Positions 10,040 to 24,316 of a stretch of DNA of 64,000 nucleotides are shown here, piece after piece. Each line of letters starts with the position of its first letter. The first letter of the stretch is position 1. The position numbers and the translations under genes were made by a program. Origin of the DNA: Thermoleophilia bacterium (GTDB taxonomy: Bacteria > Actinomycetota > Thermoleophilia > UBA2241); contig JAXGZO010000001.1 in the NCBI GenBank assembly GCA_040776965.1, forward strand, positions 1,062,275 to 1,126,274. Direction: 5' to 3'. The notes under the pieces are model-generated. The model did no database searches. It saw only the letters and a list, made by a program, of their open reading frames with translations, and was not told where the DNA came from.

Positions 10040-10115
10040 GGGGGTATAGCTCAGTTGGGAGAGCGTTTGGCTGGCAGCCAAAAGGTCACCGGTTCGAGCC
10101 CGGTTACCTCCACCA
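10040..10115 (+). tRNA. tRNA-Ala (anticodon GGC)
   Basis: A 76-nt cloverleaf: acceptor GGGGGTA/TACCTCC with the diagnostic G3:U70 pair, D-arm GCTC-AGTTGGGA-GAGC, anticodon loop CTGGCAG, T-arm ACCGG-TTCGAGC-CCGGT, and an encoded CCA. Confidence 0.9.
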
Positions 10116-10163
10116 ATTTTCCTCTTTTCCTCAGCGGCAGCTGTTGCTGTGCGCGTCTGTTAC

Positions 10164-10193
10164 GGCCCCGCTTGGCGGGGCCGTTTTCGTCTC
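10164..10193 (+). terminator. Rho-independent terminator downstream of tRNA-Ala
   Basis: GGCCCCG-CTTG-GCGGGGCC followed by GTTTTCGTCTC. Confidence 0.5.
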
Positions 10194-10445
10194 TGGAGCC
10201 GCAGGGGCTCCAGGCGGAGCTTCGCCCTCTACGAGCGCTCCGCCCCGCTCCCCCACGCCAATAGCAGGGACTCTACATATTCTGTCACCCCTGAGGGGTA
10301 TGATGAGTAGCTGCACCCACTGAGGAGACGCCGACATATGAACAGAGCCCGCCACGCCGGGGTGACTCTCCACCCGAGGCATCTAAGAGCGACAGAGCGC
10401 AGCATGTGGCCGAAACGGCCCAGGGCGGCTAGTCGGCAGCTCTAG

Positions 10446-13346
10446 ATGACTATCACCGCCTACCAAGCGAAGTATTACGCCCATGAGCTTCAGCGCTCCT
10501 ACGCGAATGACCACGTCGGTAAGCTCGCAGGCCTCCTCTTTGATGCCCAAGTAGAGCCAAAACCGCATCAGATCGATGCGGCTCTCTTTGCGCTGAGAAC
10601 CTCCTACTCCCCAGGAGTAATCCTCGCCGACGAAGTAGGCCTCGGCAAGACCATTGAGGCGGGCATCGTCATCGCTCAGTTTTGGGCAGAGCGCAGGCGC
10701 CGCATTTTGATCATCTCTCCCTCAAGCCTCCGTCAACAATGGCAGCAAGAGTTGCACGAGAAATTCCTGATCCCCAGCAAGCTGCTCAACCCAAAACTCA
10801 AAACCAAACAACTTACGAACACCACTCAGCACGACAATGAAGTGCTGATTTGCTCTTATGAGTTCGCACTTCATCATGATGCCAGCCTGTTACGCCAGTG
10901 GGACTTAATTATTTGCGATGAGGCACACCGCCTTCGCAACCACTACACAGGGCGTAATAAAACACCAGAGGCAATAAGCCGAATCGTCCGTGAGGCACAT
11001 AAGACACTTCTGCTTACGGCTACCCCGCTGCAAAATCGCCTAGAAGAGCTCTACGGCCTCGTCAGCGTATTCGACCCCGACTACTTCTACTCCCTGAAGG
11101 CCTTTCGAGAGCGCTACGTCAAAGCCAAGAACCTTGGCGACAACGGCGATTTGGCCGAGCGCGTGGCCGCTATCAGCAAGCGAACACTGCGCAGAGACGC
11201 GGATAAGTACATCCAGTTCACGAAGCGCCTACCGCTTACTGTGGAGTTTATGCCAAGCCCCGAAGAGATCCGACTCTACGAGAAGGTCAATGACTACCTG
11301 CAACGCGAAAACCTCTTCGCGTTCGCCAGCTCGCAACGTCATCTAATGACGCTGATCATCCGTAAACGCCTCGGCTCATCCACCTACGCAGCCTCAAGCA
11401 CCCTGGAGAGAATCGCAGACCGACTCGAGGCGGAACTTCATACCGGCGTTCGGCGAGATAACCGTGGCGGCCTCACTGCAACCGACTTTATAGATGACGA
11501 GCTCACCGATGAGGAGCTAGAGGGGCTAGAGGAGGACAGTCTTTCCACCTCTGGGCGAGTCCAGCGTGAGCCCAACGCCGGTGAGCGTCTCAGCGGGACA
11601 ACCATTGAGGCCATGCACGCCGAAGTCGCAGAACTCCGCCACTACGCCGACTTAGCTCGCGCTATCACCGTCAATCAAAAGGCTGTAAAGCTCCATGAAG
11701 CCCTCGAGAAGGGCTTTGAGCGCCTGCGCGAGCTGGGTGCACCAGAAAAAGCGATCATCTTCACCGACTCTACAAAGACCCAGGAATACATCGCACGCTC
11801 GCTGAGCGAGTCTGGTCGCGGCGAGGGCCTGGTCTTGTTTAACGGGTCCAACACCTCTCCCCAGTCAGACAAGATCTACAAAAACTGGTTGGAGGCCAAC
11901 AAGGACGGCGACGTTATCACCAACATCCCAGCAGCAGATCGTCGCAAGGCACTTGTTGACTACTTCCGCGACCATGGCAACATCATGATCGCAACTGAAG
12001 CAGCCGCTGAAGGCATCAACCTGCAGTTCTGCTCGATGGTCGTGAACTACGATTTGCCGTGGAACCCGCAACGCGTTGAGCAGCGTATCGGGCGCACCCA
12101 CCGTTTCGGCCAGAAGTACGACGTGGTAGTCGTAAACTTCTCCAACAAAGGCAATGTGGCAGAGGCCCGCATCCTCGAGCTGCTGGCTAGCAAGTTTCAT
12201 TTGTTCGAATCCGTCTTCGATGCCAGCGACGAAGTACTCGGCGCCATCGAAGACGGGTTCGACTTCGAGAAGACCATTAATGACATCCTCAGCAACTCTC
12301 GTACCGACGCCGACATCGAACGCGCATTCAAGGAGCTTGAAGAGCAGTACGCTACTGAGATCAGCGCGGAGATGGCCGCCACTAAAGCCAAGGTATTTGA
12401 CGCCCTTGACCCAAACGTACAAGACCGCCTAAAAACCTATGACTCACAGTCCGGCGAGGTGCTCAACAAGTTCGAGCGCTTGCTCCTAGCTATCACCAAG
12501 TTCCAACTCGGTCCCTATGCAAGCTTTGAGGAGGATGGCCGTCGCTTCCTGCTGAACCAGGCACCGGTCAAAAACGTCAAGACGGGCCGCTACTACTTTA
12601 AGTCTGAGCCGCTTAAAAACGCTCACCAGTACCGCTTCGACAGCGACCTCGCCCGCTATGTCGTGGAGTCGTCTAAAGCGGCTACCACACCGAGCAGAGA
12701 GCTCACTTTCAGCCTCGGCAGCTCCGATCGCGTCGGCGCTACAGTGAGGGCGCTTGCGGGCAAATCGGGTGAGCTAACGGTCAAAATCGTCACCTTCTCA
12801 ATGAGAGCGAAAAGCGACGATCTGAGTGAGTCCTATGTGCTAGCCACCGGCCTGAGCGACGATGGTGAGCGGCTGGACCACGAACATATCGCCAACCTCC
12901 TCGACTTGGCCTGCATTACCGAGGGCCCAGAGGTAGTTATTGACGACTCCAAATTCGAGCAGTATCTGAGCGAGCGCTGCGACTACCTGCAAAAAGAAGT
13001 ACAAAGCCGCAACTCTCACTACTACGATCAACAAGAGGAGCTACTCTACCGCAACCAGGAAGACCGCCGAGCTGAATCCGAGGCCAAGATTCGCGAGTAT
13101 AAGGCAAAAGAAAAGGAAGCGCGAAGGGCCGCGAAGTGCGCCGACGACCCGATAGAGCAGCTAAAGTACAAGAAGGAAGCTCGTCGCTGGTCAGATCGTG
13201 CAGAAGAAGAAGACGAAGAAGCGCGGGCGGCCCGCAAGAAGATGCGCAAAGAAGCAGACCACTACCTCGAGCTGATCGAGCAAGCCCTCAAGGGGACGCA
13301 ACGGATCGAGCATTTGTTCACCATCCGCTGGAAGGTAGTCGCCTGA
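10446..13346 (+). CDS. SNF2/RAD54-family DEAD-like helicase (966 aa), first gene of a putative three-gene restriction-modification-like operon
   Basis: Walker A ADEVGLGKTIEAG, DEAH box IICDEAHRLRN, and a helicase-C block EGINLQFCSMVVNYDLPWNPQRVEQRIGRTHRFGQ. The C-terminus is a Lys/Glu/Arg-rich coiled-coil tail. It ends 19 nt before the methyltransferase gene. Confidence 0.85.
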   Translation: MTITAYQAKYYAHELQRSYANDHVGKLAGLLFDAQVEPKPHQIDAALFALRTSYSPGVILADEVGLGKTIEAGIVIAQFWAERRRRILIISPSSLRQQWQQELHEKFLIPSKLLNPKLKTKQLTNTTQHDNEVLICSYEFALHHDASLLRQWDLIICDEAHRLRNHYTGRNKTPEAISRIVREAHKTLLLTATPLQNRLEELYGLVSVFDPDYFYSLKAFRERYVKAKNLGDNGDLAERVAAISKRTLRRDADKYIQFTKRLPLTVEFMPSPEEIRLYEKVNDYLQRENLFAFASSQRHLMTLIIRKRLGSSTYAASSTLERIADRLEAELHTGVRRDNRGGLTATDFIDDELTDEELEGLEEDSLSTSGRVQREPNAGERLSGTTIEAMHAEVAELRHYADLARAITVNQKAVKLHEALEKGFERLRELGAPEKAIIFTDSTKTQEYIARSLSESGRGEGLVLFNGSNTSPQSDKIYKNWLEANKDGDVITNIPAADRRKALVDYFRDHGNIMIATEAAAEGINLQFCSMVVNYDLPWNPQRVEQRIGRTHRFGQKYDVVVVNFSNKGNVAEARILELLASKFHLFESVFDASDEVLGAIEDGFDFEKTINDILSNSRTDADIERAFKELEEQYATEISAEMAATKAKVFDALDPNVQDRLKTYDSQSGEVLNKFERLLLAITKFQLGPYASFEEDGRRFLLNQAPVKNVKTGRYYFKSEPLKNAHQYRFDSDLARYVVESSKAATTPSRELTFSLGSSDRVGATVRALAGKSGELTVKIVTFSMRAKSDDLSESYVLATGLSDDGERLDHEHIANLLDLACITEGPEVVIDDSKFEQYLSERCDYLQKEVQSRNSHYYDQQEELLYRNQEDRRAESEAKIREYKAKEKEARRAAKCADDPIEQLKYKKEARRWSDRAEEEDEEARAARKKMRKEADHYLELIEQALKGTQRIEHLFTIRWKVVA

Positions 13347-13365
13347 TTACGAGAGGAAGCATTCA

Positions 13366-15234
13366 ATGAGCGATGACGATTCCTTGCAAGATATCAACGA
13401 AACCCCGAGTAGCACACCGAACTTTAAAACCGAGCTGGCTGCACAACTCGCAGAGCTTATCCCCGAGGCCATTACCGATGGCAAAATCGACGTTGAAAAG
13501 CTTAAGGAACTCCTCGGCGACGATGCGGATGACGAGCGCGAACGCTTCGGTTTATTCTGGCCCGGCAAGAAGCGCGCCTTGCGCGCCGCACAGGAGCCGA
13601 CCACCGCAACGCTAAGGCCCGACTTCGAAAACTCGAAAGACTGGGATACCACCAAAAACGTCTTCATCGAGGGCGACAACCTCGAGGTACTCAAAATCTT
13701 GCAGAAGCACTATCACGGCAAGATTAAGATGATCTATATAGACCCTCCTTACAACACCGGCAGGGACTTCGTCTATGCCGATAATTACAGAGATGGGCTG
13801 AAGACTTATCTTGAGTGGACCCGCCAAGTAAACGAAGATGGTAGGAAAGTTAGCACCAATTCGGAATCGGAAGGTCGCTACCACTCAAACTGGTTAAATA
13901 TGATGTATCCGCGACTTAAGCTCGCGAGGAATTTGCTTACAGATGATGGTGTTATATTTATTTCTATTGATGATAATGAAATTGCAAATCTTCGTAGGAT
14001 TTGCGGTGAAGTATTTGGTGAATCGAACTTTATCGGACAGTTCGTTTGGGTGACAAAAAACGCAGCACGAGGTGTTCCTCCTCGGACGATGTTGATGTCG
14101 AATCATGAATATATAATCACATATGCACGAAACGCTGAGAAACTAAAATTCAAAGGCATAGAAAGAGATGCGGGCGATTTCTCCAATCCTGACAACGATC
14201 CACGAGGGCTATGGCGCTCAGAGAGCATGAAGGCCACTGGTGATCAGAATAATTACTTTACAATTAGTGATCCTTCTAGTAATCGAACTTTCCACGCGAA
14301 TTGGGCGTTTTCAGAGTCGAGAATTGAAAAGATGATCAATGATCGACTTATAATATTTCCAGAAGAAGAGAGCGGAACTCCCCGTCAGAAGAAATTTATT
14401 GATAGCTATTTAAACGAGAGGAAAGCCTTTGTAACAAATCTTGGATGGTATTCAACAGAAAATGAAACTAAATCTCTGATGTCGCTCTTTGGCAATAAAA
14501 AAGTATTTGACTTCCCGAAACCTCTAGCGCTGCTGACTTTTCTTCTTAATCAGTCGACATCAGATGGTATTATTCTTGACTTCTTCGCTGGATCCGGGTC
14601 GATAGCGCATGCAGTGCTTGAGCAAAACTCGAAGGACAATGGAAAGCGGCAATACATTTTAGTTCAGCTGCCGGAACCAGTAAGTAAAGAGTCAACTGCG
14701 TATAGGGAGGGTTTTCGTACAATTACTGCAATCAGCCGACAGCGAATTAATGCCGCGAGAGAGCGTATCAACAGCGTCAGGGGGGGTCAGCTCGAACTTG
14801 ATAGTTCTCAATTAGATACTGGTTTCCGCTCGTACCGGCTAACCGACACCAACTTCACCAAATGGCGCGCCACCAGCGAAACGGATGCATCCACACTGGA
14901 GCAGCACCTCCTAGGCCTGCGCGACAGCGCTGACGACACCGCAACCCCAGATGCCCTCCTGACCGAGATCCTCCTCAAGCAAGGCTACTCGCTCACCGAG
15001 CAGATAGGCGACACTGAGATCTCTGGCCTTAAACTCAAGACGGTAGGCGAAGGCTTGCTTCTCGCCTATCTCGACGAGCACACTAAGCCAACTCTCGAGC
15101 AGCTGCGCGCGATAGTCGCCGAGAAACCCGCCCGTCTCATCATCCTCGAGGACGCCCTCGACGGCGATGATGAGCTCAAGACGAATCTGGTTCAGGAGTG
15201 TAAGTCACGCGGCGTAGAGCTCTGGACGGCTTGA
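13366..15234 (+). CDS. N6-adenine DNA methyltransferase, Type III Mod-like (beta class)
   Basis: Motif IV IYIDPPYNTGRDFVY comes before motif I ILDFFAGSGSIAHA; this is beta-class order with a central TRD-like region. It is adjacent to, and translationally coupled with, the Res-like gene (TGAtATG). Confidence 0.85.
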   Translation: MSDDDSLQDINETPSSTPNFKTELAAQLAELIPEAITDGKIDVEKLKELLGDDADDERERFGLFWPGKKRALRAAQEPTTATLRPDFENSKDWDTTKNVFIEGDNLEVLKILQKHYHGKIKMIYIDPPYNTGRDFVYADNYRDGLKTYLEWTRQVNEDGRKVSTNSESEGRYHSNWLNMMYPRLKLARNLLTDDGVIFISIDDNEIANLRRICGEVFGESNFIGQFVWVTKNAARGVPPRTMLMSNHEYIITYARNAEKLKFKGIERDAGDFSNPDNDPRGLWRSESMKATGDQNNYFTISDPSSNRTFHANWAFSESRIEKMINDRLIIFPEEESGTPRQKKFIDSYLNERKAFVTNLGWYSTENETKSLMSLFGNKKVFDFPKPLALLTFLLNQSTSDGIILDFFAGSGSIAHAVLEQNSKDNGKRQYILVQLPEPVSKESTAYREGFRTITAISRQRINAARERINSVRGGQLELDSSQLDTGFRSYRLTDTNFTKWRATSETDASTLEQHLLGLRDSADDTATPDALLTEILLKQGYSLTEQIGDTEISGLKLKTVGEGLLLAYLDEHTKPTLEQLRAIVAEKPARLIILEDALDGDDELKTNLVQECKSRGVELWTA

Positions 15235-15235
15235 T

Positions 15236-18214
15236 ATGGAATTTAAGTTCGATGCTCACCAGCAGTACCAGCAGGACGCGATCGCGGCTGTAGTCGATCT
15301 CTTTGCGGGTCAGCTCGCCGATGCCGCCTCGCTGACGACCATGCTTCGCGGCGTCATACCCGACTCGGGCGATCAAATGAGCGCCTTCGAGATAGCCAGT
15401 GAGGTCGGCGCGGTCGGCAATAATTTACTCCTCGACGACGAGGCCATACTGCAGAATCTGCAAGCCGTGCAAGACCGCAACGGCCTCGAGGTGGTCGATG
15501 AGCTGGCTGGAGGAGCGCTGGACTTCGACATTGAGATGGAGACCGGCACCGGCAAGACGTACGTCTATCTGCGCACCATCTTCGAGCTGGCCAAGAGCTA
15601 CCGCTTCACCAAGTTCATTATCCTCGTGCCGAGCGTCGCCATCCGCGAGGGCGTGACCACGAGCATCAAGCTGATGACCGAGCACCTCAACGACCTCTAC
15701 GCCACGCCCTTCGACTCGTTCGTCTACAGCGGCAGCACACCAGAGGAGGTTCAGTCCTTCGCCACGTCCACGAGCGTCCAGATCATGGTGATGACTATCG
15801 GCTCATTGCGCGGAGACAATAATACTCGCGTTATTCACCAAACCCGTGACAAGCTCAACGGGCTACGCCCTATCGACTACCTGAAGGCCACGCAGCCCGT
15901 GGTCATTATGGACGAGCCGCAAAATATGGAGTCGCTGCTGAGCAAGTCCGCGGTAGGCGAGCTGAACCCCCTGTGCACACTGCGCTACTCAGCCACACAC
16001 CGCAAAACCCGCAATGTCGTGTACCGGCTCGACCCGGTCGACGCTCACGACCTGGGATTAGTTAAGCAGATCGTAGTGGCCGAAGCCCTGCAGCAAGGTA
16101 CCGATGCCGCACCGTACCTAAAGCTTCAATCCGTCCGTAGCGATAAGGGCTTTCTCGCCCGTATGGAGCTAGCTATGCGCTCTCAACGAGACGGCGTGAT
16201 TCAACGCAAGACGGTGAGCGTTAAAAAGGGTCAAGACCTCGCCGTCCTCACGGGCAACTCCGCCTACAATGGCTGGTGGCTCAACGAGCTGAGCATCGAT
16301 CCTGAATCGGTCGAGCTCTTCCCCTACGGATGGCTTCAGGTCGGCGAGACTATCGGCGGCTCTAGCGATTCCATCTACCGCGAGATGATCCGCGAGACCA
16401 TTCGCGAGCACCTTCGCAAGGAGGCAATGCTCCGAGCGCACGGCGTTAAAGTGCTCAGTCTATTTTTCGTCGATAAAGTCGCACGTTTCCTCGGCGAGGG
16501 CTACAACAACGACACCGCTAACGGCGACTTCGTAACATGGTTCGACGAGCTCTTCGAAGAGGAGCGAGCCAGAGACCAGCGATGGGTAGCCTCCCTGCCG
16601 CTCGATCCGATCGAGTACCGCCGCGCCTACTTCTCGGCAATCAAAGGTACAAAAGGGCGACGCGACACCTTTAAAGACACCAACGGCACCTCTAAAGTCG
16701 ATGATGGCGCCTACGACCTCATCATGCGCGACAAAGCGCGGCTACTGGATGAGAGCGAGCCGGTGCGATTTATCTTCAGCCACTCGGCGCTCCGCGAGGG
16801 CTGGGACAACCCCAACGTCTTTCAAATCTGTGCCCTGCGGGAGATGGGCGAGCCCACAGAACGCCGTCAGACTATCGGGCGCGGGTTACGCCTACCGGTT
16901 AACCAGTCCGGCGAGCGAGTGCCCAACAAGAGCATCGCTCAACTCACCGTCGTGGCCAATGAGTCCTACCGCGAGTTCGCGAGCAGCCTGCAGAGGGAGT
17001 ACCGCGATTCCGGCGTCAGCATCGGCGTAGTGCGTCCCGGTGAGTTCGCCAAGGTCCCCACCACCGATGATGCCACCGGCGAGGAGCGGCGCCTGGGCTT
17101 CCAGGGCTCTCAGTTGATATGGGGTGAGCTGGTTGAGCGTGGCTTTCTCGACAAAGAGGGCAACCTCACCGCCAGCTTTCGCCCCGAGACCCTCGGCTTC
17201 ACACTCGGCCCAGCGCCGAACTTCTTTTGGCCGCAAAACGAGATCATCCACGTTATGCGGAACTCTCGTATCGAACGCATGGTCAAGACTCAGCGCGAGC
17301 GCGTAACCCGCAAGCTGAACAAAGAGGTCTACACATCGCCGTGGTTCGAGGACTTCTGGCGCACGATCTCACGGAGGACCACCTATCGCGTCGCCCTTAA
17401 GCGCGACGAGATCATTCATAACGCTGTCGCCAAAATTAAGGCCGAACAGCCTATCCCGCCCCTACGAGTCCAGGTCACTCGCGCGGGCGTCAAACTAATG
17501 CGTGGCGGTACCAAAACCTCTGAGACAGTCACCCGCTCGGCCGAATTGTCGGGCACCTACCAGCTGCCCGACATCATTAGCGAGCTGCAAGAAGCCACCT
17601 CACTCACCCGCAAAACGCTGGTGGATGTATTGACTCGCTCGGGCAAGCTTGATGAGTTCATCGGTAACCCCAATGACTTCATCGCGATGGTTAAACGCAA
17701 CCTACAAAACGTGGTGGCCACTGCTGTTCAGGAGGGCATCCAGTACGAGAGAATCGACGGCTACATCTATGAACTGCGCGAGCTACAGGCTGATGGAGCT
17801 GAGGCGCGAGACCTCTTCCTCGACCGCGTCTATAAGGTCGAGCACACCGACAAGACGGACTTCGACTATATCCAAATCGACTCGGAGGGGGCGAACGCAC
17901 CGGAGCGTCAGTTCGCTGAGAAGCTCGACTCGCGTGAGGACGTAAAGTTCTTCATGAAGCTGCCCGACAAGTTCAAGATCGAGACACCCGTGGGCCCCTA
18001 CAACCCCGACTGGGCGATTATCAAGCAGGATGAGAGCGGCGAGGATCGCATCTACCTGATCCGCGAGACCAAGAGCACGCTGGACGAGTCCCAACGCCGC
18101 CCAAGCGAGAACGCCAAGATCAAAGCCGCAGAGGAGCACTTCAAACAGCTAGGCATCGGCACCGAAGCTATCCCTGGCTACGCTGTTAGTGTGCCCGGCA
18201 ATTGGAGATTGTGA
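15236..18214 (+). CDS. Type III restriction endonuclease Res-like subunit (N-terminal SF2 helicase, C-terminal PD-(D/E)xK nuclease)
   Basis: 992 aa. Walker A METGTGKTYV, motif II VIMDEPQN, and a C-terminal nuclease motif PYNPDWAII...IYLIRETK. The start overlaps the mod stop. Confidence 0.8.
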   Translation: MEFKFDAHQQYQQDAIAAVVDLFAGQLADAASLTTMLRGVIPDSGDQMSAFEIASEVGAVGNNLLLDDEAILQNLQAVQDRNGLEVVDELAGGALDFDIEMETGTGKTYVYLRTIFELAKSYRFTKFIILVPSVAIREGVTTSIKLMTEHLNDLYATPFDSFVYSGSTPEEVQSFATSTSVQIMVMTIGSLRGDNNTRVIHQTRDKLNGLRPIDYLKATQPVVIMDEPQNMESLLSKSAVGELNPLCTLRYSATHRKTRNVVYRLDPVDAHDLGLVKQIVVAEALQQGTDAAPYLKLQSVRSDKGFLARMELAMRSQRDGVIQRKTVSVKKGQDLAVLTGNSAYNGWWLNELSIDPESVELFPYGWLQVGETIGGSSDSIYREMIRETIREHLRKEAMLRAHGVKVLSLFFVDKVARFLGEGYNNDTANGDFVTWFDELFEEERARDQRWVASLPLDPIEYRRAYFSAIKGTKGRRDTFKDTNGTSKVDDGAYDLIMRDKARLLDESEPVRFIFSHSALREGWDNPNVFQICALREMGEPTERRQTIGRGLRLPVNQSGERVPNKSIAQLTVVANESYREFASSLQREYRDSGVSIGVVRPGEFAKVPTTDDATGEERRLGFQGSQLIWGELVERGFLDKEGNLTASFRPETLGFTLGPAPNFFWPQNEIIHVMRNSRIERMVKTQRERVTRKLNKEVYTSPWFEDFWRTISRRTTYRVALKRDEIIHNAVAKIKAEQPIPPLRVQVTRAGVKLMRGGTKTSETVTRSAELSGTYQLPDIISELQEATSLTRKTLVDVLTRSGKLDEFIGNPNDFIAMVKRNLQNVVATAVQEGIQYERIDGYIYELRELQADGAEARDLFLDRVYKVEHTDKTDFDYIQIDSEGANAPERQFAEKLDSREDVKFFMKLPDKFKIETPVGPYNPDWAIIKQDESGEDRIYLIRETKSTLDESQRRPSENAKIKAAEEHFKQLGIGTEAIPGYAVSVPGNWRL

Positions 18215-18396: not shown

Positions 18397-20697
18397 ATGC
18401 TACAAAATGACTGGCAGATCCATCATCTTGAAAAAATTGTAAACATAGCGAGCAATCGCTATGACAGCGCGCTGAACGTTGATCTAAGTTATAAAACAGT
18501 TTTTTCAGCATTAGGCAGAACAAGTGAGTTTCAAAAAAAACTCCTAGCGATGAGTAATCGGCTTAGAACTGTACTTGATGAAGTGTCGAAATATAATAAG
18601 TCTACTGAAATTGAACGCCTCATTAACGCCTCAAAATCTGTTGCACTCGGAATACGACGGGTGTCGGATAGCGCTGCTGATACCACTCTAGATTACTCAC
18701 AAATTATCAATGATGCCAGATCTGGAATCAATTTAGCTGAGATGATCAGAAAGTCACGAAACGATCAATGTTGTAAAAAGAAATCAATATATCCATTAGA
18801 TTTTTCGCTCGATAATGTGAAGCAGGTAGCAGATTTACTCGCCGAAGCTCTGAATCTATGTGATGGGAAAGAAGCTAAAGCAGCAAACGAACAGATGCTG
18901 CTTCTGACGGGGTCGGCTGGAGCAGGTAAAACTCACATGCTGGTAGATCTAGCACTCAAACGCAATGTTGAAAAACTCACTTCAATCGTTCTCTTTGGGG
19001 ATCAATTCAGCGCACTAAAAGATATATGGCAATTTACAACAAAACTGGGCACCAAAAATAGATACTCTCTCATTGAAGTTCTTGATAAGCTGGAAACAAT
19101 TGGGAGATCATCAAAAGCACGAACAATGCTTCTTATTGATGGGATAAATGAAACTTCACCATGCAGGATCTGGCAAAATGGACTTGAGTCGCTAAAGGCA
19201 AAACTACTCGATCGACCAAACGTTTGTGTAGTTATTTCTATACGAAATGGATTTCAAGATTTAGTAGCGACCCAGAGAACCATCAATGAAACCATGACGG
19301 TTGAACATTATGGGTTTGGCAAAGATATATGGAAAGCTGTTCAGCTATTTTTTGGACACTACCGAGTACAATGGCCAGAAATTCCACTTCTTGGGCCAGA
19401 GTTCTCAAATCCACTGTTTTTAAAACTATTCTCAGAGGCATTTTCAGGTAAAACACCAAGAAGCTTCCGTGGGCACGAGGGTGGGACCCACATATTTGAG
19501 GCCTATGTAAAGAAGGCCGATCAAAAGATCAATAAGGATCTTGGGATCTCTGGAAGAGCTCATATCAACTGCTGGAATGATCTCATTAAACCCATTGCAG
19601 TCTGGATGGGAGAGAATAAAGTCCAAGAAATTCCAGCCGATAAGGCAGTTGATATCGCAGAAACAGCCTACCCCGGTTTGGGAGATCAAGCACTCACCTT
19701 AATGGAGCGTCATGCCCTCATCACGAAGTCTGCTCGAGTAGATAAGTTGAGTGGAAATCATGACTATTTCTATCGCTTTTCGTACCAGAAATTCAGTGAT
19801 CATTTAATAGTCCGCTTCCTACTCAACAGCCACCTTGACTCCAAATCTTCAGTGTCCGAAAAGAAATTCCTTTCAGAGATTTCGCTGGAACAAATCGTAA
19901 GACCAGATGAGAGGCTAGGACTACTAGAGGCGCTTTCTGCGCAAATACCAGAACGCAAAAATGGGATTTGCGAACTGATTGACTATATCTCAGAAGATAT
20001 GGTGCGATACGAAAAGGTAATCGACGCATTTCTCGATAGCTTAGTCTGGCGAAAGCCAGAGGCGATCGGTAAGAGTGCAATTAACTACATAAATAATGTT
20101 GTTCTCAAAAATGAACGATGCACACATAATTTCTACGAGGTTCTTCTCTCCGTCGCAAGTATACCGAATTATAAACTCAATGCACGAACATTGCACAAAT
20201 TACTGGAGGAATCATCACTTACCGATAGAGATCAGATATGGACGATGTGGCTTAATCATAACTATAGAGATGAAGGAAATGCTGTTGACCGCCTTGTTTC
20301 CTGGGCTCGAAGAGCACCAGGTCGCGATAAGGTAAATCCAGAAAGTGCGCTATTAACCGCGATAGCGATATCTTGGTTTTTCACTTCATCAAATCGTTTT
20401 CTAAGAGACGATGCGACAAAAGCTGTCATCGCACTGCTTGAGCATCATCCTGGCGTAGTGGCTGATCTAATTCGTATGTTTGAGACGGTAAACGACCCAT
20501 ATGTGCTTGAGCGCGTACTGTGCTCCGCTTATGGAGCCTTAGCTCGAAATCCCCAGGTTGATGCTCTTAAAGATGCTTCTATTACTTTACTGGATGGGTT
20601 TTTCAAAAGAAACGACTGCACTCATCTTCTGAGTCGCGACTACGCGCGTGGAATCGTCGAGCTGGCGATGAAAACTGGAGTTCTTAATGGAGGATGA
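18397..20697 (+). CDS. P-loop NTPase, STAND-like (766 aa). Upstream part of a 1311-codon frame interrupted by a TGA at 20695-20697
   Basis: Walker A LLLTGSAGAGKTHMLVDL at about residue 165 and Walker B-like TMLLIDGINETS. A long alpha-helical C-terminal region follows. The AT-rich composition is unlike the host. Confidence 0.6.
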   Translation: MLQNDWQIHHLEKIVNIASNRYDSALNVDLSYKTVFSALGRTSEFQKKLLAMSNRLRTVLDEVSKYNKSTEIERLINASKSVALGIRRVSDSAADTTLDYSQIINDARSGINLAEMIRKSRNDQCCKKKSIYPLDFSLDNVKQVADLLAEALNLCDGKEAKAANEQMLLLTGSAGAGKTHMLVDLALKRNVEKLTSIVLFGDQFSALKDIWQFTTKLGTKNRYSLIEVLDKLETIGRSSKARTMLLIDGINETSPCRIWQNGLESLKAKLLDRPNVCVVISIRNGFQDLVATQRTINETMTVEHYGFGKDIWKAVQLFFGHYRVQWPEIPLLGPEFSNPLFLKLFSEAFSGKTPRSFRGHEGGTHIFEAYVKKADQKINKDLGISGRAHINCWNDLIKPIAVWMGENKVQEIPADKAVDIAETAYPGLGDQALTLMERHALITKSARVDKLSGNHDYFYRFSYQKFSDHLIVRFLLNSHLDSKSSVSEKKFLSEISLEQIVRPDERLGLLEALSAQIPERKNGICELIDYISEDMVRYEKVIDAFLDSLVWRKPEAIGKSAINYINNVVLKNERCTHNFYEVLLSVASIPNYKLNARTLHKLLEESSLTDRDQIWTMWLNHNYRDEGNAVDRLVSWARRAPGRDKVNPESALLTAIAISWFFTSSNRFLRDDATKAVIALLEHHPGVVADLIRMFETVNDPYVLERVLCSAYGALARNPQVDALKDASITLLDGFFKRNDCTHLLSRDYARGIVELAMKTGVLNGG

Positions 20698-20823
20698 GCG
20701 GAATCAGCGAAACCTCCGTACGGTTCCCCTTTTCCGAAAAATGTACCCAGCAAAGATGAGATTAAAAAAAAATACGCAGATAATAAAGATCCCGTAAGCA
20801 ACTACAAATCGATATGGTATTCG

Positions 20824-22332
20824 GTGATGCATGGAGACTTCGGTAGATACATCATCGGGACAAATTCCGAAAGTATTCCATGGAGCAATCGTCCTCTTGG
20901 AGACTATATCTCTCCAGCGCCGGAGGAACGATGGGAAGATTTTTTGCTAACACTATCGATAGAGGCACGGCAAGCACTCAAAGCGTGGGAAGAATCGAAA
21001 ATCACAGACGTGATGAAGTTTAACAGCAGTAAACTACAGAGTGACAACACAGGCGAGCCGAATGAAATCACGCCTCAAGAGCAATACATGGAAGTCCTAC
21101 TACTTAGGCTACTCACGGAGGAGCAACGATCTACGCTTAAGTCTACTAACACCTTAACACAGGATTGCGCTGATAGCTCCTTTGATCTAAGAATTGCACA
21201 GTCGTGGATCTTTTTACGATGCATCCAACTAGGATTGACTAAGGATCGATTTTGGAAGAGCGATAGAGATCATTATTCTACGTTGAGTTATAACGATAAA
21301 TGTAAAATAGAACGCATAGGCAAAAAGTACCAGTGGATAGCGTATTATGAGTTCCTGGGCTTACTCGCCGATAACTATGCCCTGAAGCCGCCTTGGAACT
21401 CAAGTAAATCACCTGAGTACCTTGGTCCATGGCTGGACCTGCTTCGCGACATCGATCCAACGTGTTTGACTGATGGGCTCTCCGATGAGGAGCTTCCCCC
21501 CATCTGCAGCCAGCCCAGATACGATCCAGATGCATTCTCTTTTGATCATGAGAAGTGGCTCCTCACACTTGAGGATCTAATAGATCCCCGCCAGCTAATT
21601 GAGCGCTCCGATGAGAATGGCGAGTCCTGGTTAACCCTCGCTGGATTCTTTGAATGGGAATCTTTATCTGCACCAGGAATAAGCCGTTCCTCAGTCCTAC
21701 ATCGCTATGTCTGCTGCCAACTGCAGGGCTACCTAATACCGATCGAAGAAGCATCTATCTTTATTAGTCTAGCAAGATCACAAAACTTCAAGGAACTATG
21801 GATTCACAGGAATTATTCATCACTTGATGTCTATCTACGAGAATACCCGGATTCCATAGCATTTACCGACATGCTTAAGTCATCAGAAAACGATTCTTCT
21901 TCTCTCAGCGAAGACATGAAAATACCAATACTTGCTGCCACTAATAGCTATTCATCAATCTTAACTGATAGAGATTGCTCGGTTAAGAATCCGTTTACGA
22001 TTACACTTCCTTCATATAAGCTAGTTAAAGAAATGAATATGGTGCAAGGAATCAAAGACGGTAGCTGGACAATTAACGGACAGACCGTTGCATTTGATCC
22101 ATCAGTCGATTCGAAGTCACATAGCATGCTTCTTATTCGTCGATCAAATCTAGAATTTTATCTACAAAAAGCAGGCCTTGCGCTTGTCTGGACTGTAATT
22201 GCCTCTAAGGCGCTTAACGGCAGATGGAATGAGCTCAACGACAGACCAGCAAGAACCGAAGTGAATGCTGTATATAAGATGCAAACCAGGGGTATTACTG
22301 GCCGCATGTGGAAAAGAGAAGCGTCAAGCTAG
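20824..22332 (+). CDS. Hypothetical protein (502 aa); downstream continuation of the interrupted NTPase frame
   Basis: An ORF in low-GC DNA. I recognise no motifs. It is in frame with the upstream NTPase ORF, and its stop coincides with the low-GC/high-GC boundary. Confidence 0.45.
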   Translation: MMHGDFGRYIIGTNSESIPWSNRPLGDYISPAPEERWEDFLLTLSIEARQALKAWEESKITDVMKFNSSKLQSDNTGEPNEITPQEQYMEVLLLRLLTEEQRSTLKSTNTLTQDCADSSFDLRIAQSWIFLRCIQLGLTKDRFWKSDRDHYSTLSYNDKCKIERIGKKYQWIAYYEFLGLLADNYALKPPWNSSKSPEYLGPWLDLLRDIDPTCLTDGLSDEELPPICSQPRYDPDAFSFDHEKWLLTLEDLIDPRQLIERSDENGESWLTLAGFFEWESLSAPGISRSSVLHRYVCCQLQGYLIPIEEASIFISLARSQNFKELWIHRNYSSLDVYLREYPDSIAFTDMLKSSENDSSSLSEDMKIPILAATNSYSSILTDRDCSVKNPFTITLPSYKLVKEMNMVQGIKDGSWTINGQTVAFDPSVDSKSHSMLLIRRSNLEFYLQKAGLALVWTVIASKALNGRWNELNDRPARTEVNAVYKMQTRGITGRMWKREASS

Positions 22333-22334
22333 AA

Positions 22335-23245
22335 CGCAACGCATATCAGAAGGCGCCAGCACTATCCGCGCGTCGTTTGAGCCCTACTACCGCACCACGA
22401 TCCTCAGCGAGGAGACCGACCCCAACAAACTCCACGACCTCAAGGCTGACCTCGACGGCTACCAGATCTACGCCACCGAGGATGTACAAACACTGACGGA
22501 GCGCTACCTCTCCGGCGCCGACCGCGACGAGCTCGACCCTATTCTAGACACCTGCGTCGCCCTCTACACCGAGGAGTTCGACGAGGACGACCAGGTCGAC
22601 TTCAAGAGCAAGGCGAAGGCCTTTATCCGCACCTACGACTTCCTCGCCTCCATCCTCCCCTACGCGAACGTCGAGTGGGAGAAGCTCTCGATCTTCCTCA
22701 ACTTCCTCGTACCCAAACTACCCGCACCGGTGGAGCAGGACCTCGCCAGGGGCATCCTGGAGTCTATCGACATGGAGAGCTACCGCGTAGAGAAGCGGGC
22801 CGCCATCGCCATCGAGCTAGCCGACGAAGACGCGGAGATAGGCCCGGTGCCGGCCCAGGCGGGCGGCCGCCGGGCGGAGCCGGAGCTAGACATCCTCTCC
22901 ACCATTATCGAGGAGTTCAACGACCAGTTCGGCGACATCCCCTGGACCGACGAGGACCGCATACAGCGCCTCATAACGGAGGAGATCCCGCAGAAGGTCG
23001 CCGCCGACCCAGCCTACCGCAACGCGCAGCGCAACAACGACGCGCAAAACGCGCGTATCGAGCACAACAGGGCGCTCGAAAGCGCGATGAGTGAGCTCGT
23101 CAGCGTAAACCTCGAGCTCCTCAAGCACTTCAGCGACAACCCGGGCTTTAAGCGCTGGCTCTCCGACACCACTTTTAACATGACGTATGGAGGACCGCAG
23201 GGCGAGGGGCGTAAAGCGAGACATCTCGCGATCAACCCTGAGTAA
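22335..23245 (+). pseudogene. hsdR: 3' fragment of a Type I restriction enzyme R subunit gene (HsdR C-terminal domain), with the 5' part missing
   Basis: A high-GC frame reading ...IRASFEPYYRTTILSEETDPNKLHDL...KAFIRTYDFLASILPYANVEWEKLSIFLNFLV... resembles the conserved C-terminal (DUF3387-type) region of HsdR. There is no upstream nuclease or helicase part and no proper start. It abuts the AT-rich cassette. Confidence 0.5.
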
Positions 23246-23274
23246 GGAGCCCTTCAATAGACCTCCTCCCCACA

Positions 23275-23829
23275 ATGAAAGCCCGCCACTCGGTGCGCAG
23301 CTTTACGAAGGAGCGCATCGACGACGAGACCAAGGCGGCGCTCCTGCAGGAGATCGCCGTCAAGAACTGCCGTAACTACCTCGCCATCGCCGGCGTGAGC
23401 GGAGCGGATGAGGCCGTGGGGTACTACGGCGAGAGGGTTGTGCTCGCAGCGCAGGCCCTCGGCCTCAACTCGTGCTGGGTGGCGGTCACCTACAGCAAGG
23501 GCAGGGTCCCGTGCAGGCTGGAGGAGGGCGAAAAGCTGCACATCGTGGTCGCCCTCGGCTACGGCACAACGCAGGGCTCCCCCCACAAGAGTAAACGCCT
23601 TGAGGCCGTCTGCGAGGTGGACGACGCCACGCCCGACTGGTTTAAGGCCGGCGTGGAGGCCGCGCTCCTCGCCCCCACGGCGATGAACCAACAGAGGTTC
23701 CACTTCTCGCTCGCGGGCGAAGAGGTGCGCGCAACAGCGGGCGTCGGCTTGTACACAGCCATAGACCTCGGCATCGCGAAGTACCACTTTGAGGCTATCG
23801 CGGGCGCAGACAACGTTAGGTGGGCGTAG
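23275..23829 (+). CDS. Nitroreductase-family protein
   Basis: 184 aa reading MKARHSVRSFTKERIDDETKAALLQEIAV...; the typical nitroreductase N-terminal RxSxRxF motif. Confidence 0.75.
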   Translation: MKARHSVRSFTKERIDDETKAALLQEIAVKNCRNYLAIAGVSGADEAVGYYGERVVLAAQALGLNSCWVAVTYSKGRVPCRLEEGEKLHIVVALGYGTTQGSPHKSKRLEAVCEVDDATPDWFKAGVEAALLAPTAMNQQRFHFSLAGEEVRATAGVGLYTAIDLGIAKYHFEAIAGADNVRWA

Positions 23830-23929
23830 CCCGTACTGCGCGCCTCCCCGCAGAGCCCCGCCCTGCCGCCGCTCCGGCGAGGGTCGGCACGTCTTAATTG
23901 AGCGCCGAGATGAAGCTCCCGCGCAACCC

Positions 23930-24316
23930 CTAGGGAGCGAGCGGAGGCGGCGTAGTCGCCGCAGCACCAGCGGGAGCCACAAGCGGCGAGGAGGAGGCCG
24001 GCGACATGGGCTCAGAGAGCGGCTGGGCGGAGGAGGGGGCAGGGGATAACGCCGAAGGACCACTCGGGACCACGAGTGGCGCCGGGGAGGCGGAGGGTGG
24101 AGCACTCGAGGCGAAAGGCGACACAGGCGAAGCCGAAGCGGTGGGGCGCTCGGCGGAAAAGGGATCCCGCTGAGCGAGCTCGCTAAAGAGTGTGTACCCG
24201 GCGAGAAAACAGAGGGCGACGGCCGCCGCGAAGGCGATGAGCTTAGCGACCGCCTTAAGCACGGCACGGCCTCGCCCGCCGCGCCGGAAAAGCCGAGGGA
24301 GCCCGCTGCGCTCCAT
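23930..24316 (-). CDS. Small membrane-anchored Pro/Ser/Ala-rich protein (hypothetical)
   Basis: 128 aa: a basic N-terminus, one TM helix (LIAFAAAVALCFLAGYTLF), then a PSA-rich low-complexity tail. It is convergent with the nitroreductase. Confidence 0.35.
   Translation of the reverse strand: MERSGLPRLFRRGGRGRAVLKAVAKLIAFAAAVALCFLAGYTLFSELAQRDPFSAERPTASASPVSPFASSAPPSASPAPLVVPSGPSALSPAPSSAQPLSEPMSPASSSPLVAPAGAAATTPPPLAP

Follow-up and report, generated by a model that had tools for sequence, protein, structure and literature searches.

The stretch of DNA analyzed in this work, hereafter the window, spans 64,000 nucleotides of contig JAXGZO010000001.1 from a Thermoleophilia bacterium (assembly GCA_040776965.1, positions 1,062,275 to 1,126,274 of the forward strand) and carries three consecutive genes on the plus strand. 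They encode a SNF2-family ATPase (10446..13346, 966 aa), a Type III methyltransferase, Mod (13366..15234, 622 aa) and a Type III restriction subunit, Res (15236..18214, 992 aa). The SNF2 gene was assigned from the list of open reading frames (ORFs) and from Pfam, PADLOC and NCBIfam searches, Mod from the PADLOC MTase_III profile and matches in the Protein Data Bank (PDB), and Res from the PADLOC REase_III profile, Pfam and an alignment with a PDB structure. All three genes lie far beyond chance expectation: the ORFs are long, their E-values reach 1e-258, and public data contain homologues that are identical or nearly so. A first-pass annotation of this DNA had described three co-directional ORFs coding for a SNF2 protein of 966 aa, a beta-class DPPY Mod and a Res of 992 aa, and its coordinates were found to be exact, while its family assignments held in the Pfam and PADLOC searches. 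The trio is a real, widespread and unnamed variant of the textbook Type III defence system, and not a hybrid of the DISARM system.

The organization of the three genes was examined at their junctions. The SNF2 stop codon is followed by 19 nt, as previously annotated; this spacer includes the sequence GAGGAAG and leads to the Mod ATG, while the second junction, described at that time as overlapping, consists of the Mod TGA, a 1-nt spacer and the Res ATG (TGAtATG). No above-chance terminator was detected within the trio (13 weak sites against 9.5 +/- 3.6 expected). The 19-nt spacer with its ribosome-binding site, the 1-nt spacer and the lack of an internal terminator fit a single predicted transcript carrying SNF2, Mod and Res. 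Upstream of the trio, ARAGORN identified a tRNA-Ala(GGC) gene (10040..10115, plus strand), which marks the left boundary of a low-GC island and lies outside the operon. This tRNA gene is followed by a terminator-like hairpin with a T-run (10162..10184, plus strand), found as a pattern match in a consensus scan, whose 10-bp stem contains 9 G-C pairs and is followed by TTTTCGTCT. Because the tRNA has its own strong terminator-like hairpin and is separated from the SNF2 gene by 330 nt, the trio is not considered to be co-transcribed with it; the first-pass description of the trio as lying directly downstream of tRNA-Ala thus stands for the adjacency and not for the distance. The GC content drops from about 0.68 to 0.57 right after the tRNA, and the low-GC island extends to about 23 kb with the trio at its start. 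The three genes show a GC content of 49-59% (55% for the SNF2 gene) against about 68% for the genome, and the variable middle part of Mod, the target recognition domain, reaches a still lower value of 0.46.

The Mod protein returned a single Pfam match, N6_N4_Mtase (PF01555), and a full-length match of 626 bits to the PADLOC profile MTase_III PDLC03634, while the Mod of 6k0w and the EcoP15I Mod (4zcf_A) were recovered among the PDB entries. The DPPY motif (13741-13752, aa 126-129) precedes the FAGSG motif (14584-14598, aa 407-411), both on the plus strand, an order that places the protein among the beta-class N6-adenine methyltransferases. Res combines a superfamily 2 ATPase with a C-terminal PD-(D/E)xK nuclease, matching the ResIII and RE_endonuc (PF19778) domains of Pfam and, over its full length, the PADLOC profile REase_III PDLC03647 with 859 bits. 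The alignment with EcoP15I Res (4zcf_C) showed conserved motifs, including PDW...ETK; TGTGKT (15542-15559), DEPQ (15911-15922), QTIGRGLR (16868-16891) and the endonuclease domain (17852-18151) were all located on the plus strand. Every feature expected of a Type III system at the sequence level was therefore found in the trio, namely a beta-class Mod, a Res with ATPase and nuclease in one polypeptide, and mod upstream of res, and the locus apparently holds a complete and functional Type III system. The idea that SNF2 replaces a decayed Res motor was ruled out, as the ATPase and nuclease motifs of Res were intact in 29/29 partners of the window's type and of the type found at locus L023; for the other two Res subfamilies, the regular expressions used in this check were too narrow to assess Walker A and motif II. 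Since Mod and Res are complete and their motifs intact, SNF2 is an addition to a functional Type III core and not the substitute of a decayed motor.

The SNF2 protein matched the Pfam families SNF2-rel_dom and Helicase_C, with an ATPase core extending from 10548 to 12305 (aa 35-620) and containing the Walker A motif GLGKT (10638-10652), the DEAH box (10917-10928) and motif VI, QRIGRTHRFGQ (12081-12113), all on the plus strand. These motifs were invariant in an alignment of 55 sequences from two clades and were found in 71/71 members of the census described below, which indicates selection for ATPase activity. The best profile matches were DrmD models and involved the helicase core only: PADLOC DrmD (PDLC02619) returned 579 bits over profile positions 25-631 of 872, NCBIfam DrmD_b (NF038318) 575.6 bits against an equivalog cut-off of 950 over positions 22-643 of 868, and NCBIfam NF038317, also a DrmD model, 239.9 against a cut-off of 610. 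With the NCBIfam RapA model the score was 174.7 (cut-off 576), from two partial stretches, and the PADLOC HmaA model gave 203 bits on the helicase part only. Among solved structures, the best relatives were RapA chains (about 121 bits, both ATPase lobes only), while hhalign aligned the N-lobe alone to E. coli RapA. An ATPase core starting at about residue 35 leaves too little sequence ahead of it for the N-terminal Tudor domain or domains of RapA and BrxHII, which appear to be absent. Given the C-terminal topology described below, the protein probably belongs to the RapA/BrxHII/DrmD/ArmA kind of prokaryotic SNF2 ATPases.

The family is large, with at least 8,000 database clusters at E<1e-30, and carries only generic names, annotation pipelines calling its members merely 'SNF2-related protein'. 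A profile search for a wider set of homologues returned the same clade again and nothing further. The next tier of relatives on plasmids showed 26-30% identity, restricted to the helicase core, and occurred in systems combining a helicase with DUF1156 and Swt1-HEPN proteins; this different context and the core-only similarity indicate that the Type III-linked SNF2 family is a discrete clade. Two clusters of a helicase, DUF1156 and a Swt1-family HEPN protein carry these next-nearest SNF2 proteins (L266 9746-19466 and L267 9758-21406) and apparently correspond to the DUF499/DUF1156 BREX-related systems described in PMC12839542.

The C-terminal module of the SNF2 protein (12459..13343, plus strand, aa 672-966) was modelled on its own with AlphaFold2, which returned a pLDDT of 87.6 and a pTM of 0.66. 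The model consists of a beta-rich domain, a helical hairpin of about 110 residues (12948-13292) and a last strand, LFTIRWKVV. The C-terminal 336 aa (from about aa 640) matched no Pfam family even at E<10, and no NOV_C domain was detected. No significant match to a solved structure was obtained for the modelled module, the Foldseek top hit being RapA with a non-significant E of 0.019 and a TM of 0.30. In RapA and BrxHII, the SNF2 core has been described as leading into an alpha+beta domain and then a beta-sheet, with a pair of long helices placed ahead of its final strand (PMC12839542), and the topology modelled for aa 672-966 appears to be the same. We had considered the region aa 640-966 as a domain unique to this family, since it had no Pfam match and DrmD_b was unmatched past position 643, and this proposal was dropped because a corresponding topology is given in PMC12839542. 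A search with aa 640-966 retrieved 454 representative clusters at E<=1e-3, in which the module was always C-terminal in SNF2 proteins of about 950-1,030 aa. One protein carrying the same module, P0360 (1,986 aa), has a UvrD helicase and a PD-(D/E)xK nuclease fused N-terminally to SNF2; this arrangement recalls ARMADA, where SNF2 is paired with UvrD (ArmA/ArmD), and also a Cronobacter element whose listed cargo is 'helicase IV plus SNF2 plus Type III'.

To evaluate the association of the three genes, loci carrying relatives of the SNF2 protein were collected from GTDB species genomes (22), metagenomes (80) and IMG/VR contigs (79), together with three annotated plasmids, and Mod and Res of four reference types were mapped onto them by tblastn. 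Proteins with at least 35% identity that reached the C-terminal region were counted as full-length family members (range 35-84%). The order SNF2, Mod, Res occurred in 81 of the 89 informative loci, the order Mod, Res, SNF2 in two, and in one Mod and Res lay on the opposite strand; SNF2 thus adjoined Mod-Res in 84/89, and the first-pass suggestion of a fixed SNF2-Mod-Res unit was borne out. Outside these 89, 15 loci reached Mod at the contig end and 20 were too short to judge. The hosts of the trio include Actinomycetota, Saccharibacteria, Armatimonadota and Pseudomonadota, plus plasmids, and the link was kept at 38-42% SNF2 identity on proteobacterial plasmids, namely those of Cupriavidus and Salmonella and the IncF plasmids of E. 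coli and Klebsiella; the trio of the E. coli Ecol_316 plasmid pEC316_2 (NZ_CP018955.1) lies at 29.5-39.2 kb. Moreover, the SNF2 clade pairs with three deeply diverged PADLOC Type III subfamilies (03634/03647, 03646/03654 and 03636/03648), which were about equally represented in the census. The permuted order Mod, Res, SNF2 was observed at L028 (1681-9509) and L107 (4049-11835), whose SNF2 proteins are about 58% identical to that of the window. The linkage therefore withstands both a permutation of gene order and the insertion of unrelated cargo up to 5.3 kb.

This cargo was then characterized. The gap between SNF2 and Mod measured at least 1 kb in 29 of the 81 loci, up to 5.3 kb, whereas the gap between Mod and Res had a median of 24 nt and was at least 1 kb in 15/81, up to 3.0 kb. 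A scan of 65 ORFs from the SNF2-Mod gaps returned OLD/ABC-type ATPases (9), AIPR (5), Schlafen-AlbA (5), Fic (3) and SIR2 with HerA (2), and also a Gabija-like pair of OLD and UvrD, ApeA, FRG, an Abi gene, an M78 peptidase and IS elements. The loci with insertions include L007, L017, L025, L027, L037, L040, L063, L077, L093, L094, L115 and others for the SNF2-Mod gap, and L048, L088 and others for the Mod-Res gap. Other defence genes have repeatedly been inserted at the junctions of the trio.

Two further variations were recorded in the census. An Aquiluna genome (L013, 12945-17139) contains two tandem Mod genes, 49% and 54% identical to that of the window, between SNF2 and Res, which may provide two specificities for one Res. 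In the versions on proteobacterial plasmids, a small gene coding for a helix-turn-helix (HTH) protein of 66-81 aa runs up to or into the SNF2 start codon (L023 8795-8995, L024 8769-9014 and L025 7545-7745); these HTH genes are of two unrelated types, one of them AlpA/excisionase-like by sequence. A C-protein-like HTH controller had been considered as a fourth component of the system and was rejected, being present in only 13/113 loci and absent from the window. The small HTH gene may be an optional controller.

The evolution of SNF2 and Res was compared through their distance matrices. For 71 pairs the comparison returned a Pearson coefficient of 0.74 with a Mantel p of about 0.001, and the nearest SNF2 neighbour shared the Res type in 67/71 cases. 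Within the window's own type the Spearman coefficient between SNF2 and Res reached 0.94, while between types the identity was 41-45% for SNF2 and 15-18% for Res. SNF2 and Res have been co-inherited over the long term, and a correlation alone does not prove their physical interaction.

A second census was anchored on Res, collecting from IMG/VR 80 loci with relatives of the window's Res (31-63% identity). IMG/VR being a biased sample, its proportions are indicative only: the SNF2 family of the window was found in only 6/80 loci, a different upstream pair, made of a PLD(HKD)-SNF2 fusion and a DUF4391 protein, in 42-49/80, and 13 informative loci had no upstream helicase. The fusion protein, of about 1,070 aa, matched the PADLOC candidate model C3a139 ('HKD+Snf2') with 390-440 bits, and its gene precedes that of the DUF4391 protein. 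Complete four-gene clusters of PLD-SNF2, DUF4391, Mod and Res were located at L193 (4117-12976), L225 (4232-13030), L209 (4149-13024) and about 42 further IMG/VR loci. In this database the pair is the commonest context of the window's Res subfamily and the form seen in the window is the rarer one. These unnamed clusters share with the trio the same Res and Mod subfamily and a SNF2-family gene in the upstream slot, but differ in their SNF2 lineage, in the PLD-type fusion and in the extra DUF4391 protein. The two SNF2 modules never occurred together in 264 loci, and DUF4391 was absent from the SNF2-anchored loci and from the window. Within the loci sampled, a SNF2-type partner is the rule for this Res subfamily, and the finding of another SNF2 module in the same slot suggests that these Res proteins generally act together with a SNF2 partner, in two mutually exclusive forms. 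In the literature searched, DUF4391 appeared in two papers, neither of them on restriction-modification (R-M).

The trio was then compared with known systems. Like the classical Type III enzymes EcoP15I and EcoP1I, which are Mod2Res assemblies, it contains full-length Mod and Res homologues with all catalytic motifs, encoded on the same strand in the order mod, res, with a 1-nt spacer in this case. In contrast with the Type III prototypes studied so far, a conserved SNF2 ATPase gene precedes mod and co-diversifies with res. The census and the intact Mod and Res bear out the alternative reading offered in the first-pass annotation, in which an accessory helicase is added to a Type III system. 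A RapA-like SNF2 protein paired with an N6-adenine methyltransferase also occurs in ARMADA type II (armA-armB-armC-armD) and in the BREX type 3/DUF499 systems. ARMADA is defined by the YprA-like helicase-nuclease ArmC (DUF1998) and by a PglX-like methyltransferase (10.1101/2025.09.15.676423), and neither was found among the island proteins; likewise, PglZ, BrxC (or the DUF499 ATPase) and a BrxXI-type methyltransferase of BREX type 3/DUF499 had no match among them. Unlike the SNF2 proteins of ARMADA and BREX type 3, that of the window apparently lacks the N-terminal Tudor domain. It also differs from Hma, whose HmaA is a SNF2 helicase with a C-terminal nuclease-type NOV_C domain.

As for novelty, no name, prediction or test of a SNF2-Mod-Res composition was found in the openly searchable literature, outside of which fall subscription-only papers and REBASE. 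SNF2 and Type III were met together in incidental traces, namely an unremarked cargo list of a Cronobacter element and abbreviations in figure legends. PADLOC may report such loci under its generic 'DMS_other' label. The claim of a possibly undescribed variant thus holds for the composition, while the constituent families are known, and it is further limited by the SNF2 and N6-adenine methyltransferase pairing already known from class 1 DISARM, ARMADA and BREX type 3; a SNF2 protein accompanying a methyltransferase would not by itself astonish a specialist. The breadth and fidelity of the SNF2-Type III link, the two alternative SNF2 modules and the cargo-accepting junctions are not in the reachable literature.

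On the whole, the three genes very probably form one functional system, and we favour, with a probability of about 0.62, its interpretation as a three-component Type III R-M system in which a SNF2 translocase assists Mod-Res. Several observations weigh against this interpretation. Classical EcoP15I and EcoP1I work without any SNF2-type partner. Co-diversification can arise from linkage on one mobile unit, without protein interaction, and no fusion of SNF2 to Mod or Res occurred among 150 representatives of the C-terminal domain, which showed N-terminal extensions only, plus the UvrD fusion. The likeness of the C-terminal module to RapA and BrxHII consists of its topology and of the non-significant Foldseek match (E=0.019), hhalign having aligned the N-lobe only. 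Furthermore, no Mod or Res was found within 6-9 kb of SNF2 in 5/89 informative loci, and the frequent presence of defence genes between SNF2 and Mod implies that tight translational coupling is not required, so that a looser neighbour relationship also fits. SNF2 might instead act on its own in defence or DNA transactions and share its islands with Type III systems without being coupled to them, as defence genes cluster generally and single-gene SNF2 defences such as HmaA exist (PMC11232893). We consider this quite unlikely, as the adjacency extends across phyla, replicon types and three Res subfamilies with a constant order, SNF2 and Res co-diversify, and a different SNF2 module that never co-occurs with this one fills the slot in sister systems. 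Moreover, in contrast to HmaA, no nuclease or effector domain was detected in SNF2 by Pfam. The five exceptional loci carry defence or mobile cargo directly after SNF2, comprising Fic, Schlafen-AlbA, a SNF2-NOV_C protein, an ABC-ATPase with an HD protein, an ISL3 transposase with type I-E cas genes, and AAA_13; they are explained by still larger cargo insertions, and in one of them, L031, a fragment of Mod is present where the contig ends.

The main rival concerns the direction of the effect, SNF2 being a negative regulator or safeguard that limits Res on host DNA, either by stripping Mod-Res from unmodified chromosomal sites after repair or upon establishment in a new host (restriction alleviation) or by promoting methylation. 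RapA, the solved protein most closely related, strips stalled RNA polymerase off DNA; SNF2, as the first gene, would be made first; and mobile Type III systems need protection during establishment. In class 1 DISARM, in addition, the full system methylates more completely than the methylases do on their own (10.1101/2021.12.28.474362). However, the Walker motifs A and B of the homologous ArmA are essential for ARMADA defence itself (10.1101/2025.09.15.676423), and the alternative module fuses SNF2 to a nuclease-type PLD domain, which points to an offensive role of the slot; a safeguard function is therefore judged unlikely. The first-pass annotation had instead favoured a DISARM-like hybrid, in which a helicase-methylase pair acts through a DISARM-type mechanism with the Type III Res in place of DrmA/B/C. 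Indeed, a SNF2 gene directly before the gene of an asymmetric-site N6-adenine methyltransferase mirrors drmD-drmMI of class 1 DISARM (drmD-drmMI-drmA-drmB-drmC), where deletion of drmD and drmMI nearly abolishes protection against one phage (10.1101/2021.12.28.474362), and the best PADLOC and NCBIfam matches of the SNF2 core are the DrmD models (579 and 575.6 bits). These matches are confined to the core and fall below both DrmD equivalog cut-offs, and a SNF2 protein of this type is equally common to BrxHII, ArmA and RapA. The DISARM methyltransferases DrmMI and DrmMII belong to PF13659 and PF00145 respectively (10.1101/2021.12.28.474362), whereas that of the trio is a full-length PF01555 Type III Mod, and the effector is a Type III Res, Mod-Res being a canonical self-sufficient pair homologous to EcoP15I. 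None of the core proteins DrmA, DrmB (DUF1998) and DrmC (PLD) was found among the seven island proteins or in the exceptional loci. For DISARM, defence is reported not to depend on how many methylation sites there are or how they are oriented. The hybrid did not survive this comparison and is considered very unlikely. Finally, a housekeeping transcription factor of the RapA/HepA type lying by chance beside an R-M system would agree with the RapA chains as best PDB sequence matches and with the RapA-like C-terminal topology. By sequence, the solved structure nearest to the SNF2 protein is that of RapA, the ATPase that recycles RNA polymerase, with the likeness in the ATPase lobes. Membership of the RapA clade, an outcome the first-pass annotation had allowed for, did not hold: the score (174.7) is far under the family cut-off (576) and limited to two partial stretches, the Tudor domains that RapA has at its N-terminus would not fit ahead of a core starting at about residue 35, the GC content of the gene is 55% against 68% for the genome and its setting is a tRNA-flanked mobile defence island, and its relatives lie on conjugative plasmids, always beside Mod-Res. 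This last alternative is thus extremely improbable.

Returning to the three-component Type III interpretation, SNF2 is probably a positive accessory motor of restriction, a direction suggested by analogy with ArmA and DrmD, and might interact physically with Mod-Res. The sites bound by Type III enzymes are asymmetric and become methylated on one strand. A burst of ATP hydrolysis switches these enzymes into one-dimensional diffusion, and cleavage follows when one that is sliding encounters another bound to an unmodified site of inverse orientation. In the proposed mechanism, Mod, probably as a dimer, would recognize a short asymmetric site and methylate one adenine, thus marking self DNA, while Res would act as an ATP-dependent switch and nuclease that cuts unmodified DNA. 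SNF2 would be a dedicated accessory translocase on double-stranded DNA, of the RapA/BrxHII/DrmD/ArmA kind, inherited and diversified with Mod-Res. It may spend ATP moving along or remodelling the incoming DNA, clearing bound proteins and joining distant sites or enzyme complexes, and this action would let the passive one-dimensional diffusion of Type III enzymes end in cleavage, making restriction more effective or broader. The RapA-like C-terminal module might serve as the docking surface for Mod-Res or DNA.

Type III is the textbook two-subunit system, whose ATP-triggered sliding was worked out on enzymes without a partner. A SNF2 component accompanies Mod-Res in three Type III subfamilies and in at least four phyla, and also on conjugative plasmids from Klebsiella, Salmonella and E. 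coli; if it were required, or altered the cleavage rules with respect to site orientation, roadblocks or target range, many systems annotated as 'Type III' would be mis-modelled. In that case, the trio would offer the simplest experimental setting for the poorly understood DrmD, ArmA and BrxHII ATPases, its other two parts being biochemically well understood. In addition, new defence genes could be sought at the junctions that accept cargo. A more speculative extension, which we put forward tentatively and regard as doubtful, is that large 'Type III' subfamilies are obligate three- or four-component machines, where a SNF2 translocase (RapA/BrxHII/DrmD-like or PLD-SNF2 with DUF4391) licenses or drives Res. 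SNF2 and an asymmetric-site N6-adenine methyltransferase would then constitute a common sensing module with interchangeable effectors (Res; DrmAB(C) in DISARM; ArmC in ARMADA), and the trio junctions a natural docking site for further defence genes. If true, the common sensing module would connect classical restriction with the more recent defence systems linked to methylation.

With regard to the genomic setting, the closest relatives of the trio, L001 and L002, also lie downstream of tRNA-Ala(GGC), and the spacers between the tRNA and the SNF2 gene are unrelated among the window (10040-10445), L001 (7133-8527) and L002 (8533-10001). Other relatives (L006, L009, L017 and L027) were observed just 3' of same-strand tRNA genes for Pro, Gln or Asn. 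As to the hallmarks of an integrative element, no integrase was found in the window, and the far end of the island showed no direct repeat derived from the tRNA.

Directly 3' of Res, the window carries an Avs2 (AVAST type 2) gene (18397-22332, plus strand) split by a single in-frame stop codon into two ORFs of the same frame (18397-20697 and 20824-22332; ...VLNGG*AESAKPP...). The two halves matched positions 171-938 and 987-1496 of the 1504 positions of the PADLOC Avs2 profile, the first 170 or so, corresponding to the N-terminal effector, being without a match. The split gene is probably a pseudogene due to a nonsense mutation or the result of a sequencing error. Its GC content (0.42-0.44) differs from those of the trio (0.49-0.59) and of the host (0.68), which suggests a separate acquisition of Avs2. 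Two further ORFs (22265-23245, plus strand, 326 aa, and 23254-24267, minus strand, 337 aa), with no match in Pfam, PADLOC or NCBIfam, occupy the right edge of the island, where the GC content returns to the host level.

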